A DNA stretch of 12,823 bases. Source: a virus. The stretch is taken from UHGV virus genome UHGV-1339911. One strand, given 5' to 3'. This document shows positions 1,293-11,877 of this stretch, piece after piece. Both the position numbers and the translations under genes were made by a program. The notes beneath the pieces were generated by a model. It saw only the letters and a program-made list of their open reading frames with translations. It was not told where the DNA came from and did not search any database. Numbering within the stretch: the first letter of the stretch is position 1; every line of letters begins with the position of its first letter.

Positions 1293-4200
1293 TTAAATGT
1301 GATTATCCCATTCATTTTTTATTTCGTCGAATTCATTTTTAGAATTGCACATTTTTTCCCATTCCTGAATTATATTTGGTTGTACAATACCTAGACGTTT
1401 GTTGTTGCAATAAATAGATGCTGCTAATTTTGTCGCGCTAAGTTTTTTTTCTAGATAGCTTAAGTGGTCATTATTGTTAATAAATTCTTTCCCATCCTCG
1501 AATAATAGGCCAGTTAAACCGCAATGAATTTTATTCATAAACTCATCAGAAATTGTAAAATCGCTAGAGCTTATTATAAACCTGACTAAATCATAGCATT
1601 CAGGAAGACATGGATCACGATTCCAGGCTATTTTTTCACTAAGTATTGTGATAATTTCTGGTGGGTACTCTTTATTTCTTATTAGTACATATACAGAGTT
1701 TATTGCTTCAATGACTTCTGTTTTAATGAAACTATATAACCCAGAACCTATATCTTTTAATAGGTCGCTTGAATGGTTCTTTTGATTCATTAAAAGCATA
1801 GTTAGTGCAGAATTTACAGGGATTCCTGATTTTTTCATCTTTTCTATCAAGTTTGTAATATGAATAATTGATTCACTATTCAATTTATTATAGTGGATTT
1901 CTAAAATTGTAGTGATAATTCTTGTTATGTTTTTAAATCTATGTGTAAATTCTTTTGATAAATCGTCCCGTTTCTCAAGCCAAATTTTATCATTGGAAAA
2001 CCACTTATTCATTTCAGATATGATCTCAGATAAGATAGTTTCGGACGGGGTTATATGATGAAGGGCACCATTAAGTTCGTTACAATAATTGTCGTTACCA
2101 CCTGTTATAGTAACGCTATTACCATTTTGAATAGGAAAATTATATGTTTTTATAATGGAAATAAATTTATCCTGAATATTTTCATTTTCAGGGTGAAGGT
2201 TATCTATAAAGAAAAATCTATAGTAACCACTATTAATTGGAAATCCATATTCATCGCGTTTAGCCCATAGGTTTTTTATTAGTTTTGAAATATCAGACTT
2301 GTTAAGTAGATCAAGATTATACAATGTAATTAACTTTTGTGATGCTGCTTTTCTTAAATCTTGATCTTCGCTTTTTAAATCATCAATATCTTTTCTGATT
2401 TTGGAAGATGTTATTTTTTTCAATAAACCATTAGGTCGTTTGATAATTGAAGCCAGTAGACATTCAAAAGGAGTAATAAAATTATATTTTTGACCCATAC
2501 CTAAATGATCATTAGAGGGTTTCGACGGATAATCGATAAAAATATCTATGAGGGATATTTTTTGAGAGTCATTCATACTCGCTATAGTACGTCTAAGCAA
2601 ATCCTTTGTCTCAGCAAAATCATAAAACCCCTCAGAGTTATATAACTTAAGAAGAAGGGTTATTATATCTTTTTTCTTTTCAAAAGAAACTTTTGTTACT
2701 AGTCTTGATAATATTTCAGGAATGATTGATAGGGTGGATAACTCTATTTCAAGCTTATCGCTAAGTCTTTCATCTATTTTTTTTAAGATGATTTGTTCGT
2801 ACTTTTTGAAGTATCCATCAAATAAATCTTCAACTTTTTTTCTTTCTAATAAAGAGAGTCTACCACGGTTAAAAAGACTTTTTGCTTTATCTTTATTAAA
2901 TGTTCTAAATATTGCAAAAATAGCGAATTCAGGGGAGTATGGATATATATGTCGGGATGCGTTTTCAACTATGCCACTAAAAATATTCATTCCAGGTATA
3001 TGGAAAGGCAGTCCAAGTTCTTCTGCTAGCAATAGAAAGTTGAAAGCATCTAAGGATTTAAGTTCCGCGGGACTCCCACCAAAATAAGTTGTCACAGTTC
3101 TTCTGTTAAGATCAAAATCAGTATCCTTTGAATTCTCAGATATACCTTGTGGGGATTCTAGTTTGATTTCTAAATACTTAATTTCGTTTTCTGGATCGCT
3201 ACGATATTGAGATAAAGTTGCTAATCTAGAATTGTATTCTGAAGTGTAATCATCGTTCTTGTTATTATTTTTCAAGCTTCTCTTGAACATTCTTAATATA
3301 TAAATGCAATAAGCTTCTTGGGACTCACTTGAATAGTCGATGTTCCTTGATGATAAAAGACTATTTCGGCGAATAGTTGATAAAGTTTCTTCAAGAAGAT
3401 TAATGGCTTCATCGAGCATGCCAAACTCAGCAAGTAGTCCCGCTCTTTTAATTTCATACTGTGGAAGAAGTTTATTTGTTTCCCAATTTGAAAGTTTTGT
3501 TCTGGCTTCATCAAAGTTCAATCTAAAATAAGAATGTAGGATATTCTCGTAATAGAATTCAGATTTAACTTCTGGAGTTAGTCTTTCTAAATTGGGAATC
3601 AGTAAATGATTTAATTCTTTCCATTTTGCTGTGAGATTCTCTTGGCGACAAAATTTCATTAAATTAATAACGATGGCTGAATATTTATCATCCAGATCTT
3701 TGTTTATTATGTTGTTAGTGTATTCGTCTTTATATTTTTCTGTGAGTTTAAATAAAAACTCTGCTGTGTCATTAAATATAGGTAGTAATGCTTTATTTAA
3801 TCGCCAAGTTAACTCATAACCAAAATTAATTTCTGCATATTTTTCCCAAATCACATCGTAGGTAACTACTGCCAACCACTCTCTAGTATCACGCCAAAGA
3901 TTACTGCGATTAGATTCAGGCAAAATAAGCCAGTTAGGATAAGATTTTCTTAATGATCCCCACTCAATAATGCATCGATTTATTTTTTCCATTTTTATTT
4001 CAGGGGTGTCATCGAAAGAAATGTGTTCTCGATTTTTTATTATTGGCCACTCTATTAAATTTTCTTTGTTTTTTGTTTCGTAGAGGGACTCTATAAAATG
4101 TTGATGAGCTAAATAATGATCTTTGCCAAAGTCCCCAAGTAAACTCAAGTCCACGATTGATATGTTTCTTTTTTCAAGCAATTTGCGCTGTGCTTCATTG

Positions 4201-4922
4201 AATGAGAAAAGACCTATCAGATAAATTTTTGGTGAGTTTTCTGCTCCAAGATTATCTCTTATCCAGCCAATCCAGTTAAGGAAATTAGGATCATCACCAG
4301 AAAAACCAATCAAACAAAGAGTATTTTCAATGAGTGATTGCTGTACTGTATTTACAAATGGTGAGTTATCTAAAGGATATTTCCTGTAATCTTCTTCAGT
4401 AATTATAAAAGGCCGCTCTGATGGGAAGCTTCCGTGAAGTTTGATGATCCTAGGTCTTTCAGCATTCATCAAATCACTTTTATTCAGTACCACATCATAT
4501 TTTCTGGAGTCAACATATACACATGCACGCTCAAGCAACGTGTCATAGTTAGTTGTAAAAACATCAACCCATGGTAACGATAAAAGAGAGATGTGTAATT
4601 TAGATGGTTCATACTCTTTATCAGGAACATGATCCATTATCAACTTATCAAGTGTTGCACGGCCGAAGGCGGCTTGTACCTCATCGCCAAGTTTGAGTAC
4701 ATTTAAATATTTGTTTAAATTTTTCTCACAGTAAATATTTTCATAAAAAATATCGCCTAAATCATTCCACATTGGGAATTGTCGTGCCTTGTTTGTTAAA
4801 GGTTTTGCATTTCGACTAAATCCAGCACCAATGAGTATTGCTGCGCGACCATCCCAAAGGCGAGATGATATATTATTTAATAGCGGTTTGATTTTTTTCT
4901 TATTTGTCATTATATATTCCAT
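1293..4922 (-). CDS. Large SIR2-domain fusion protein (defence-associated sirtuin / DSR-like); candidate single-gene NAD-depleting anti-phage protein with an unassigned ~950-aa C-terminal region
   Basis: Uninterrupted 1209-aa ORF. N-terminal ~260 aa carry SIR2_2-type motifs in canonical order: AAILIGAGFS (aa 27-36), VFTTNYDTLLE (aa 121-131, putative catalytic Asn125), IIKLHGS (aa 159-165, putative catalytic His163), CLIGFSGDDPNF (aa 203-214). No Walker A/P-loop seen anywhere in the protein. Gene is visibly AT-rich compared with its neighbours and lies between int and the late operon. Start-codon choice (M1 at 4920-4922 vs M5) is uncertain; no strong SD for either. Confidence 0.8.
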   Translation of the reverse strand: MEYIMTNKKKIKPLLNNISSRLWDGRAAILIGAGFSRNAKPLTNKARQFPMWNDLGDIFYENIYCEKNLNKYLNVLKLGDEVQAAFGRATLDKLIMDHVPDKEYEPSKLHISLLSLPWVDVFTTNYDTLLERACVYVDSRKYDVVLNKSDLMNAERPRIIKLHGSFPSERPFIITEEDYRKYPLDNSPFVNTVQQSLIENTLCLIGFSGDDPNFLNWIGWIRDNLGAENSPKIYLIGLFSFNEAQRKLLEKRNISIVDLSLLGDFGKDHYLAHQHFIESLYETKNKENLIEWPIIKNREHISFDDTPEIKMEKINRCIIEWGSLRKSYPNWLILPESNRSNLWRDTREWLAVVTYDVIWEKYAEINFGYELTWRLNKALLPIFNDTAEFLFKLTEKYKDEYTNNIINKDLDDKYSAIVINLMKFCRQENLTAKWKELNHLLIPNLERLTPEVKSEFYYENILHSYFRLNFDEARTKLSNWETNKLLPQYEIKRAGLLAEFGMLDEAINLLEETLSTIRRNSLLSSRNIDYSSESQEAYCIYILRMFKRSLKNNNKNDDYTSEYNSRLATLSQYRSDPENEIKYLEIKLESPQGISENSKDTDFDLNRRTVTTYFGGSPAELKSLDAFNFLLLAEELGLPFHIPGMNIFSGIVENASRHIYPYSPEFAIFAIFRTFNKDKAKSLFNRGRLSLLERKKVEDLFDGYFKKYEQIILKKIDERLSDKLEIELSTLSIIPEILSRLVTKVSFEKKKDIITLLLKLYNSEGFYDFAETKDLLRRTIASMNDSQKISLIDIFIDYPSKPSNDHLGMGQKYNFITPFECLLASIIKRPNGLLKKITSSKIRKDIDDLKSEDQDLRKAASQKLITLYNLDLLNKSDISKLIKNLWAKRDEYGFPINSGYYRFFFIDNLHPENENIQDKFISIIKTYNFPIQNGNSVTITGGNDNYCNELNGALHHITPSETILSEIISEMNKWFSNDKIWLEKRDDLSKEFTHRFKNITRIITTILEIHYNKLNSESIIHITNLIEKMKKSGIPVNSALTMLLMNQKNHSSDLLKDIGSGLYSFIKTEVIEAINSVYVLIRNKEYPPEIITILSEKIAWNRDPCLPECYDLVRFIISSSDFTISDEFMNKIHCGLTGLLFEDGKEFINNNDHLSYLEKKLSATKLAASIYCNNKRLGIVQPNIIQEWEKMCNSKNEFDEIKNEWDNHI

Positions 4923-5902: not shown

Positions 5903-6457
5903 TCAGTACCCTCCTTTTTCATTAAGTCGGTTAAGGCGGGCCAGGAAAACTTTATGTTGTGCTGGGGTGAAACTGGCTGAAGCATCAGCGCACATTGATG
6001 CATCCACCGTTAATCCGGTTTCGTCGATAATGCTCTTGTATGCTGCTGAAATTACCGGAGTACGCACTTCCGTTTGTCGGGCTACAGCGGTTCGTAATAT
6101 TTTCATTGCCGCCTCAAGCCCGTATGGAGCGCAAAGAAAAGGAGCCAGAGCGTCAGTGAGTGCATCACCATGCTCGCTCATGAAGTTTTCCGTTGCGCTT
6201 GTAACACAACTCTCCAGCACAATCTGGTGAGCATAAAGACCATCCCGTGCAGCACAGTTAATCTGCCATTCGAGGACTGCAAGACGCTCACGAAGATCCT
6301 CAAGCTGGCTGGCATATGCTGCCAGTTTTTCTTCAGTATCCAGCAGAGCCGCCAGACGAAGCTGGCAGGTACTTTGCGTATTACGTAGTGTCAGCCAGCT
6401 TTTTATCGCCGAGCGGTAATCGTTGAGTGCTTCCTGAGTAATGCTTCCGGCATTCAT
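5903..6457 (-). CDS. psu: Psu-like protein (polarity suppression / capsid decoration protein of P4-type satellites)
   Basis: 184 aa. Segments FMSEHGDALTDALAPFL and the C-terminal FTPAQHKVF resemble P4 Psu as I recall it (FMQQHGTALAAALAPEL, FTPAQNMIF). Start overlaps the sid stop (ATGA), implying translational coupling. Confidence 0.75.
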   Translation of the reverse strand: MNAGSITQEALNDYRSAIKSWLTLRNTQSTCQLRLAALLDTEEKLAAYASQLEDLRERLAVLEWQINCAARDGLYAHQIVLESCVTSATENFMSEHGDALTDALAPFLCAPYGLEAAMKILRTAVARQTEVRTPVISAAYKSIIDETGLTVDASMCADASASFTPAQHKVFLARLNRLNEKGGY

Positions 6458-7206
6458 TTCTTCTCGCCCCCTTTAACCATGTCACGCTGTTTAAGCATCC
6501 GTGAACGCGCTGCAGGGCTGGGGGATTGTCTGGCATCTTGGATGGCTTTATCGTCCGCATAAATGCTGATCCCCGGCAGGGTAATATCATCCGTTGAAGA
6601 TACGTTACAGGACAGTGCCGGAGTGGTGAGTTGCTCGCTGATAAATTGCTTCAGCACACTTTCGGGGTCGTTTACGGTATGAACTACACCGATAACAGCA
6701 GAAGCGCTTCGGCCCAGAGTCATTTTCAGCAGTCCAAGGATCTGAATAAGTTTCTGGCCGTGTTCCTTCATAAACTCATTCCAGAGCCACACTGCATGAG
6801 TTTCAATCAGGCGATTATGCTCACTGATGTAGTGGTTTGCAGCATCCGCAGTTTTCCAGGGCAGGAATTCATTTTCTGCCGCCTGAGCTGCCAGCAAATC
6901 TTCGAACTCATCCAGTGTTTCGCGTCCGAGGGCGATTTCTGCCCGCAGTTTTTTCATGCGTGGCGTCATATTTCCCTGATTCTCACGAAACAGGTTTCGC
7001 CATTCATCATTAAGCGCCTGCGTTTCCGTTTTTGTATCTTCCTGACGTTTACGGATAGTTTCAATCATTGCAGCAGCTTCAGTTTGTTTTCGCCGTTCTT
7101 CCTGCCAGACAGCTTTTGCTACCTTAACTTTATCCACCGCTTCGCGAATTTTCGGTGGGAGGGAGGGTGTAATGTTTGCATCAGGGATCTGGTTAACAGT
7201 AGTCAT
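6454..7206 (-). CDS. sid: Sid-like capsid size-determination (external scaffold) protein
   Basis: 250 aa, charged and helix-prone, first gene of the leftward operon, immediately upstream of psu and ogr/delta. Size and position match P4 Sid (~244 aa). Assignment is mainly from synteny and size; I cannot confirm sequence similarity without a search. GGAG lies 5 nt before the ATG. Confidence 0.6.
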   Translation of the reverse strand: MTTVNQIPDANITPSLPPKIREAVDKVKVAKAVWQEERRKQTEAAAMIETIRKRQEDTKTETQALNDEWRNLFRENQGNMTPRMKKLRAEIALGRETLDEFEDLLAAQAAENEFLPWKTADAANHYISEHNRLIETHAVWLWNEFMKEHGQKLIQILGLLKMTLGRSASAVIGVVHTVNDPESVLKQFISEQLTTPALSCNVSSTDDITLPGISIYADDKAIQDARQSPSPAARSRMLKQRDMVKGGEKK

Positions 7207-7278
7207 GACTGCTCCGGTAGTGTTTTATTGTCGTGTCAATTGTGCCGGTGCCCATACAAGCGCACTACCGAGGGGGAT

Positions 7279-7310
7279 TGTGCCAGTGACAGAACAATGA
7301 CCTTGTTCTG
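7279..7310 (-). promoter_or_regulatory. Candidate Ogr/Delta-activated late promoter element (TGT-N12-ACA dyad) overlapping an 8-bp palindrome, upstream of sid
   Basis: TGT (7279-7281)-N12-ACA (7294-7296) matches the activator-site consensus described for P2/P4 late promoters. Its centre is about 80 bp upstream of the sid ATG, compatible with a site centred near -55 and a short leader. Adjacent perfect palindrome CAGAACAA-tgacc-TTGTTCTG at 7290-7310. Confidence 0.45.
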
Positions 7311-8118: not shown

Positions 8119-8379
8119 ATGCATGATATTTCTGTTTCTGCGCCAGCTCCGGCTGCGCCATTATTTCCTGTGCTGAACCAGCATGAGCGATTTTTACGTC
8201 TTCCCGAGGTGATGCATTTATGCGGCTTGTCCCGCTCAACTATATACGACCTGATAAGCCGCGATGCTTTCCCGAAGCAGATCCCGCTTGGTGGTAAAAA
8301 TGTTGCCTGGGCACAGTCAGAGGTAAGCGCATGGATGGCGGATCGTATAAGTGCCCGCGGACGGGGATGTGATGCATAA
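8119..8379 (+). CDS. alpA: AlpA/Vis-family phage DNA-binding regulator (excisionase-like HTH)
   Basis: 86 aa. [53 protein letters not shown] is the typical AlpA/Vis helix-turn-helix core. SD GAGGG sits 7 nt upstream of the ATG. Confidence 0.85.
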
Positions 8380-8473
8380 TGATGCCTGAACGCATTAATC
8401 CCCTTTTTTCTGGCTTGCATCCTGCAGTCATTTCCAGGTATAGTTTTCCCGCTGCCGCAAAATCGGCTGCCGG

Positions 8474-8725
8474 GCGTAGGAACCCGAGTTACTTATTGGC
8501 GACACCAGACGCGCCGTGCGTCTTTTTTTACGTCGTTGCTCAGGCACACCCATTTTTCGGGCTGCGGTGCTTATACCTTAGTCCCTGTCAGATAATGGTG
8601 GTCCGGGCGGGGCAGCCTTCGGGCTGGCCGGTTTCCAATAAGGCCGGTATTCCTACCCCCGTCTGGGCTACCACCCATGAGCGTAGGAACTCCGGTGGTG
8701 GCATTTACCGCGACTTATTGGAGGT
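8474..8725 (+). promoter_or_regulatory. Candidate P4 CI-RNA-like immunity leader (seqA / seqB / seqC-like complementary repeats)
   Basis: Direct repeats GCGTAGGAAC...ACTTATTGG at 8474-8499 and 8681-8721. Between them, 8635-8658 (CCAATAAGGCCGGTATTCCTACCC) is approximately their reverse complement. The second direct repeat overlaps the GGAGG SD of the downstream small gene. The region is GC-rich and its conceptual translation (first ~118 aa of ORF 8379..8924) is low-complexity. Confidence 0.35.
8507..8529 (+). terminator. Intrinsic terminator-like hairpin plus T7 tract inside the alpA-downstream leader
   Basis: Stem AGACGC / GCGTCT (8507-8512 and 8518-8523), loop GCCGT, followed by 7 T (8523-8529). 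Lies inside the ORF-track ORF 8379..8924, arguing against that ORF's 5' part being translated. Confidence 0.5.
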
Positions 8726-8732
8726 TGCCCTT

Positions 8733-8924
8733 ATGGCTACGATCCTCGCCCCTTCACATCCTCAATTTATATTTGTTTTTGCCGCCGTTCGTCGTGCAGA
8801 ACGTAAACCACGTATCAGTATGCTGCGTATCGTCGCCAGCAATGAGCATCATGCACGTCTTTCACTGGTCCATGAGTATGTGCTTTGCCTTGCTGCTCGC
8901 CTGCCTGTCCGGGAGGTGATGTGA
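8733..8924 (+). CDS. Small early-operon protein, possibly Icd-like (host cell division inhibitor family)
   Basis: 63-aa short form starting at ATG 8733 with GGAGG 8 nt upstream ([63 protein letters not shown]). The C-terminal ...ARLPV... pattern resembles Icd-like proteins of P4-type elements as I recall them. Family assignment is tentative. Confidence 0.45.
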
Positions 8925-11830: not shown

Positions 11831-11855
11831 CCCGGCTGATGCCGGGTTTCTTATT
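11831..11855 (+). terminator. Rho-independent terminator after the primase gene
   Basis: Stem CCCGGC / GCCGGG (11831-11836 and 11841-11846), loop TGAT, followed by TTTCTTATT. Begins 12 nt after the primase stop. Confidence 0.6.
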
Positions 11856-11877
11856 GGAAACGCACAAATGTAGAGAT

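Follow-up and report, generated by a model that had tools for sequence, protein, structure and literature searches.

The type of immunity mechanism considered here is already known. It has been established since the 1990s, it has been described in P4-like prophages and it is curated in Rfam. According to the passages of PMC10111431 that deal with this region of P4 and summarise Forti et al. 1999, eta is a gene that contains the CI RNA, the seqA element and also the constitutive promoter. Eta is translated from an upstream late promoter, coupled to an alpA homolog; its translation prevents termination and is needed for read-through, and kil, nested in eta, is a truncated form which is translated on read-through (same passages of PMC10111431). 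In P4-like prophages the IsrK-like element corresponds to seqA and the C4-like element to the CI RNA (PMC3632133). CI and C4 RNAs have been reported as substrates of RNase P (PMC5499578).

The c4 RNA of P1 and P7 belongs to the same Rfam family, RF01695, as the CI RNA described below. It shares the logic of a processed antisense RNA with one target upstream and a second target over the start of an Icd-like gene. The target sites in P1 and P7 are a1/b1 and a2/b2, and the RNA controls icd-ant. P1 differs in that the downstream operon encodes an antirepressor, whereas the operon described here leads to satellite replication genes. Another relative is the anti-immunity locus of linear plasmid prophages of the phiKO2 / N15 type. 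Phage phiKO2 is 80% identical over positions 8437-8703 of our sequence, i.e. promoter -10, leader, CI RNA and the start of seqC, where its annotation reads repressor, terminator or Icd-like. In N15, an antirepressor operon lies downstream and is controlled by a small processed RNA. Both phiKO2 and N15 differ from the present element in their downstream genes. Finally, our leader RNA is in the same Rfam isrK family as the leader of the IsrK/STnc1160 pair of Gifsy-1 (Salmonella); IsrK was called a structural homolog of the P4 seqA RNA, with a processed RNA downstream (PMC4825925, PMC3632133). In Gifsy-1, however, the short RNA activates orf45-anrP translation in a lambdoid prophage, whereas here a P4-type satellite is concerned in which the role of the leader would be repressive.

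The window (the whole stretch of DNA that was analysed, 12,823 nucleotides) is a P4-like satellite prophage beside tRNA-Leu in E. coli. Its gene order is integrase, Dsr2, delta/psu/sid-like genes, vis/alpA, immunity region, a small ORF, DUF5375 and primase. The P4-like core set of integrase, psu, delta, sid, alpA/vis and primase alpha is present, as judged from the PGAP annotation of a 99.7% identical locus, from Pfam matches (AlpA, DUF5375) and from P4 homology across the region. The vis/alpA-like gene (86 aa; 8119-8379, + strand) matches Pfam Phage_AlpA at 6.4e-20 and is annotated by PGAP in the 99.7% identical genome. DNA identity with P4 is about 72% for the immunity region and 80% for the segment comprising leader, CI RNA and seqC. 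P4 has the same elements in the same order and spacing, i.e. vis stop/eta start, promoter, leader hairpins, terminator, CI RNA, seqC over the Shine-Dalgarno (SD) sequence and kil, and the same genes after kil, DUF5375 and then primase. It differs in that the spacer between terminator and CI RNA is 45 nt (29 + 16 nt) shorter here. Of 5426 complete E. coli genomes, 2005 had matches to the region (60-100% identity), with 893 places on plasmids, and 547 contained at least 80% of the query.

The window also carries a Dsr2 anti-phage sirtuin of 1208 aa (1293-4922, - strand; PADLOC Dsr2, 1698.7 bits, with a concordant PGAP name). With the integrase on one side and the delta/psu genes on the other, it occupies the psu-int defence hotspot of P4 that Rousset et al. 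2022 described (PMC9122126). This Dsr2 cargo at the hotspot is a further difference from P4.

A first-pass annotation, made from the letters alone, had read 8380-8732 as a probable P4 CI-RNA-like immunity leader, located after vis/alpA and ahead of the early genes that lead to the primase, and misread as the 5' part of a 181-aa ORF. The RNA part of this proposal held: both RNAs score above the Rfam gathering thresholds, P4 gives both matches at the aligned positions, and seqA, seqB and seqC covary in 62 relatives (see below). The placement, too, is as described and is supported by the gene context. The stretch is the well-known RNA immunity switch of a P4-like satellite prophage; the identification is correct, but ordinary. 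In full, our reading, which we hold with high confidence, is that this is a P4-type immunity region with a different specificity, and that the eta-like ORF, whose 5' part it forms, would be translated from an upstream late promoter. The sequence and comparative support covers a conserved promoter, a leader with seqA and terminator, a CI RNA with exposed seqB, seqC over the SD of kil, and an open eta-like frame coupled to vis.

For the comparisons 62 elements from other Enterobacterales were retrieved by a C4-core pattern which left both specificity boxes and everything outside the core unconstrained. The CI/C4-type antisense RNA (8591-8678, + strand) starts about 60 nt downstream of the leader terminator and has a long stem (8596-8673) with two hairpins inside it; C-CCA comes next at 8674-8677. 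It matches Rfam RF01695 (C4 antisense RNA, a family which includes the P4 CI RNA) with 82.3 bits, where the gathering score is 45, over model positions 1-87 of 87 and with E = 2.5e-15. Its minimum free energy was -51.1 kcal/mol (z = -4.55 on the + strand and -0.60 on the opposite strand), and the MFE structure equals that of the Rfam model. The 17-bp closing stem was 99.9% paired in the 62 relatives, and three of its pairs were changed on both sides. Since the retrieval pattern had partly determined hairpins 5 and 6, their invariance is uninformative. Taken together, the intramolecular structures of leader and CI RNA were 97.9% paired, with eight compensatory pairs.

The transcript which carries these elements would start inside the long ORF. 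A putative P_LE-like constitutive promoter is located at 8415-8444 (+ strand), with a -35 TTGCAT at 8415-8420, an 18-nt spacer and a -10 TATAGT at 8439-8444. The -10 ends 7 nt upstream of the predicted transcription start at about 8451, the position at which the isrK model also starts. The promoter motifs GGCTTGC and TAnAGT are kept in 61 relatives and are identical in P4. A simple promoter scan with the rule of at least 4/6 matches to TTGACA did not list TTGCAT-N18-TATAGT. The leader RNA (isrK family, the P4 seqA leader; 8451-8528, + strand) comprises hairpin 1, hairpin 2 and an intrinsic terminator. Rfam RF01394 (isrK) matches 8451-8528 at full length with 72.1 bits against a gathering score of 50, and P4 gives 60.8 bits at the aligned position. 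Folded alone, the leader had no extra stability compared to shuffles (z = -0.05); its three helices were 98.8%, 83.9% and 99.2% paired in the 62 relatives. The last value is that of the rho-independent terminator (8507-8529, + strand; GACGCG-loop-CGCGTC, then T7), whose GC-rich 7-bp stem at 8507-8523 is the terminal hairpin of the Rfam match. Among the relatives it shows a CG/GC swap (32 vs 30), and the T7 run is invariant.

The geometry of the repeats is simple. Direct repeat D1, GCGTAGGAAC, occurs at 8474-8483 and 8681-8690, direct repeat D2, ACTTATTGG, at 8491-8499 and 8713-8721, and both are complementary to 8634-8661. The corresponding inverted repeats are 8471-8482/8650-8661, 8644-8656/8683-8695, 8634-8642/8714-8722 and 8492-8499/8635-8642. 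The composite GTAGGAA-N(5-35)-CTTATTGG has three occurrences in the window, at 8476-8499 and 8683-8721 on the + strand and at 8635-8656 on the - strand, and it did not occur in 200 dinucleotide shuffles. Thus, the first-pass annotation was accurate about two flanking direct repeats with a near-reverse-complement segment between them and about a strong intrinsic terminator at 8507-8529. It was equally right that the second repeat runs into the SD of the next gene, since box 2 at 8714-8722 overlaps GGAGG at 8720-8724.

The three copies are seqA, seqB and seqC. In seqA (8476-8499, + strand), box 1 GTAGGAA (8476-8482) occupies the hairpin-2 loop and box 2 CTTATTGG (8492-8499) a single-stranded spacer; folding gave unpaired probabilities of 0.78 and 0.54. 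In seqB (8631-8656, + strand), box 2 CCAATAAG (8635-8642) is in the hairpin loop 8631-8642 and box 1 TTCCTAC (8650-8656) in an internal single strand; both are exposed in the CI fold, with unpaired probabilities of 0.73 and 1.0. SeqC (8683-8724, + strand) has box 1 GTAGGAA at 8683-8689 and box 2 CTTATTGGA at 8714-8722, and its box duplexes with seqB have energies of -17.9 and -12.8 kcal/mol. The best two + strand partners of seqB within the window are seqA and seqC. Exposed segments that are complementary to an upstream and a downstream target copy, as in the C4 family, are therefore present. A whole-molecule duplex of CI RNA and leader was not discriminating (z = -1.15; 64/500 shuffles were equally good) because the method ignores intramolecular structure. 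As expected, RNA cofolding, which allows nested pairs only, gave no intermolecular pairs, since loop-loop contacts cannot be modelled in this way. Intermolecular pairing was judged instead by box-level duplex energies and accessibilities. The summed box duplex energies were -42.9 kcal/mol for partners of the same specificity class, -29.5 when one box differed and -16.9 when both differed.

Do the repeats covary as RNA partners would? Covariation was computed on the 62-sequence alignment, and controls were partners slid by 1-3 columns and 500 shuffles. The 62 relatives fall into 19 specificity classes as defined by box 1 and box 2. Own seqA and seqC compared to own seqB had on average 0.22 mismatches per 30 nt, across classes 11.1. 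Between seqA and seqB pairing was 100% over 930 cells and 12 of 15 pairs were compensatory; between seqB and seqC it was 98.8% with 12 of 16 pairs compensatory. SeqA and seqC both track the seqB of their own element. The slid partners paired to 34-54%, and 0/500 shuffles attained the observed covariation score or percentage paired.

These data bear on the possibility that the locus is an ordinary protein gene, i.e. that a 181-aa two-domain product (Phage_ASH plus Icd-like) is made and that the repeats are coincidental or protein repeats. PGAP annotates the whole ORF as a protein, and Pfam PF10554 (Phage_ASH) matches residues 21-130 (8439-8768) at 6.9e-33. Yet one repeat copy is inverted, and the three copies covary as base pairs across the 19 classes. 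Further, the Phage_ASH stretch consists of promoter -10, seqA leader, CI RNA and seqC, and it lacks a protein-type substitution pattern, i.e. there was no codon-position bias in the 62 relatives. Two Rfam RNA families cover the same stretch, so that conservation at the RNA level, read in a conserved frame, accounts for the Pfam match. We consider the protein-gene explanation hardly tenable. PF10554 therefore largely models RNA-constrained sequence whose open frame is conserved.

The downstream target covers a translation start. The SD GGAGG (8720-8724) is followed by an in-frame ATG at 8733, and complementarity to seqB extends to 8722. As in P4, the first gene to be translated is kil (Icd-like), and seqC overlaps its ribosome-binding site. 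This kil-like gene (63 aa; 8733-8924, + strand) is nested in frame in the long ORF, matches NCBIfam NF033153 over residues 12-59 at 8.8e-20 and is the first gene translated from leader transcripts. It aligns with P4 kil (ATG 3260 to stop 3457, 65 aa). Its diversity by codon position among the relatives was 0.25/0.22/0.49, a strong coding signature, and synonymous changes amounted to 0.73 in frame versus 0.16 and 0.14 off frame. Within kil, the C-rich and G-poor segment 8740-8819 (+ strand; 31% C, 16% G) is a candidate Rho-utilisation region comparable to timm of P4; nowhere else between 8380 and 9480 is the C/G ratio as high as here (1.92). In P4, timm is reportedly located inside kil. When the seqC RNA was folded in isolation, the SD had an unpaired probability of only 0.02 due to a local hairpin. 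On this folding model the SD of kil may be masked even without CI, and binding of CI is perhaps not the sole block to kil translation. Two details of the seqC region are added: in the isolated RNA CUCCGG (8690-8695) and its neighbours pair with UUGGAG over the SD, and a small conserved hairpin (consensus GTAGC...GCTAC) lies between the two seqC boxes.

The long ORF itself (eta-like, 181 aa; 8379-8924, + strand) is one frame running through promoter, leader, CI RNA, seqC and kil. The first-pass annotation had taken it for a misreading. Carried to its end, this means a purely non-coding leader: 8379-8732 would never be translated, and the 181-aa ORF would be an annotation accident joined to a 63-aa gene. 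Several results agree with such a view. Promoter, terminator and structured RNA are all inside the ORF. The diversity of its spacers by codon position was 0.33/0.40/0.41, i.e. without third-position bias, and the 5' part had no excess of synonymous changes (0.33 in frame vs 0.26 and 0.37 off frame). The 5' 118 codons are without constraint at the amino-acid level, and the curated Icd-like domain is confined to residues 130-177.

The frame, however, is kept open. It is open in 63/64 relatives. Among 62 unique leaders this frame never contains a stop triplet, while the other two contain 303 and 123, and 10/10 of the box variants which contain a stop place it out of frame. The distance from seqA to the CI core is shifted in intact elements by +3, +6, +36, +45 or -6 nt, all multiples of three. 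Coupling to vis is common: in the window the TAA stop of vis overlaps the ATG of the long ORF as TAATG, and an ATGA overlap of the long-ORF start with the vis stop was found in 26 loci. In P4 the corresponding frame is open as well and extends from ATGATGATG, at the stop of vis, as far as the stop of kil; the two frames are 54% identical over the full length. As in P4, a long ORF thus runs from the vis/alpA stop through the RNA elements and is in frame with kil. Moreover, in the passages of PMC10111431 on P4, eta is reported to be translated and functionally required for read-through. Against these data an untranslated leader is improbable. The long reading frame corresponds to eta, which is known to be translated, and is no mistake of annotation. 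Hence, the earlier view stands in so far as the 5' part is not protein-like, and is not supported in so far as the ORF was called misread. A low-complexity peptide, as had also been claimed for 8379-8732, was not found: its Shannon entropy was 4.06 bits and the mean entropy of 12-aa windows 3.0, and vis, integrase and primase of the window had 4.06-4.16 bits and 2.96-3.02, respectively. In our reading, based on the comparative sequence pattern, selection on the 5' part would keep the frame open for the passage of ribosomes and not for a protein sequence. For annotation, two ncRNA features (a seqA/isrK-like leader and a C4/CI-like RNA) and a nested kil-like CDS are due besides the eta-like ORF.

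The exception to the multiples of three is the element from Chimaeribacter coloradensis (L047). It is the sole relative with another spacing (-32; seqA at -101 instead of -133) and also the sole one whose long frame is interrupted both before and after the core, and is probably in decay.

By homology, the P4-type region would operate as follows. The promoter inside the long ORF would start a leader at about 8451 which carries seqA and the intrinsic terminator. Judging from the literature on P4, P1 and Gifsy-1, part of the transcripts would read through this terminator; for IsrK, partial read-through is documented (PMC4825925). The CI RNA would be excised from read-through transcripts, with RNase P making its 5' end. 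It would pair with seqA and seqC on new transcripts and so block translation of kil, and the untranslated RNA would be terminated by Rho inside kil, which the C-rich segment fits. DUF5375 and primase would then remain silent in the lysogen. When the late promoter fires, ribosomes coupled from vis/alpA would cross leader, terminator, CI RNA and seqC, and by this translation of eta late-promoter transcripts would be insensitive to immunity.

The leader might act differently, in the manner of IsrK. The terminated leader RNA (8451-8528) would then not be mainly a termination target in cis; it would work mainly in trans, bind seqB either on read-through transcripts or in free CI RNA, free the SD of kil and switch expression on. 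In favour of this, the leader matches the Rfam isrK model at full length and has a putative promoter and a terminator to itself. The boxes of seqB are contested by seqA and seqC, and in the seqC RNA folded on its own the SD is paired. The short IsrK RNA of Gifsy-1 is an activator of translation on the transcript that reads through, and the processed STnc1160 is located downstream (PMC4825925). The sequence, however, is compatible with action in cis as well as in trans. Further, P4 seqA is reported to be needed to establish immunity, and IsrK-like elements are required in P4-like prophages of S. Typhi (PMC3632133); both argue for a repressive rather than an activating role. An IsrK-type activator is therefore rather unlikely, and we retain the repressive P4-type scheme.

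A pattern search of the window did not find an exact TGT-N12-ACA late-promoter activator site upstream of vis; consequently, the promoter that would drive eta was not located in the window. Window-wide there were three such sites versus 2.94 expected, i.e. chance level. Two of the three, the dyads at 7241-7258 and 7279-7296, are just upstream of the sid-like gene (6454-7206, - strand), which is the expected place of a delta/Ogr-activated late promoter.

All defining features of P4 immunity that could be tested are present here, except identity of the specificity boxes. The immunity specificity of P4 would call for identical seqB boxes; alignment to P4 showed that both differ, with matching changes in seqA and seqC. 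Box 1 and its partner are GTAGGAA/TTCCTAC here and GTGAGAA/TTCTCAC in P4, box 2 and its partner CTTATTGG/CCAATAAG here and TTCACAGG/CCTGTGAA in P4. With neither the seqB boxes nor their targets shared, heteroimmunity to P4 is predicted: the system is of the same type, but the immunity group would be a different one. Such heteroimmunity would bear on the coexistence or exclusion of satellites within one cell.

Among 64 elements there were at least seven box-1 and at least nine box-2 alleles in 19 combinations, and all four combinations of the commonest box alleles were present. Perhaps the two seqB boxes constitute an address of two independently reassorting parts which defines many heteroimmunity groups of P4-like satellites across the Enterobacterales; we put this forward tentatively, at slightly below an even chance. 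A switch of class needs matched changes at three sites, in the order A1-A2...B2-B1...C1-C2, and in addition a stop-free eta frame. Because of this order a single crossover cannot swap one box at all three sites. The arrangement suggests gene conversion among the three copies behind box switching. The catalogue of specificity classes could guide cross-immunity experiments. Only some aspects go somewhat beyond the literature that we found, namely the scale and modularity of the classes and the coexistence of RNA constraints with a stop-free frame; a survey of P4-like satellites (PMC8628076) is without discussion of the immunity RNA.

A possible fourth target of the CI RNA was considered and left out of the system. 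Directly 3' of the terminator hairpin of the primase (11831-11849), CTTATTGGAAAC at 11850-11861 is complementary over all its 12 nt to the box-2 loop of seqB, GTTTCCAATAAG (8631-8642); about 0.0015 such matches are expected per window. The site is kept in E. coli relatives with the same box 2 (L066-L070) despite 3-9% divergence of the flanks. It was absent from the 62 cross-species loci, and L071, the sole E. coli relative with a different seqB, had no compensating version. Cross-species conservation and compensatory change were thus both lacking.

Some observations on individual alleles and elements may be added. The box-1 alleles TTCCTAC and ACGCCAA were each found with both CCAATAAG and CCATTGAG as box 2. 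All 12 of the 12 elements with ACGCCAA share the +6-nt spacer, yet they carry three box-2 alleles. Six genomes harbour two or three elements. Co-resident elements differed in at least one box in 6/6 genomes, a pattern which is not significant with six genomes (same-class pairs would be absent by chance with a probability of about 0.45), and often in only one box (L016/L044/L062, L020/L030, L004/L050, L018/L053, L059/L060 and L026/L029).
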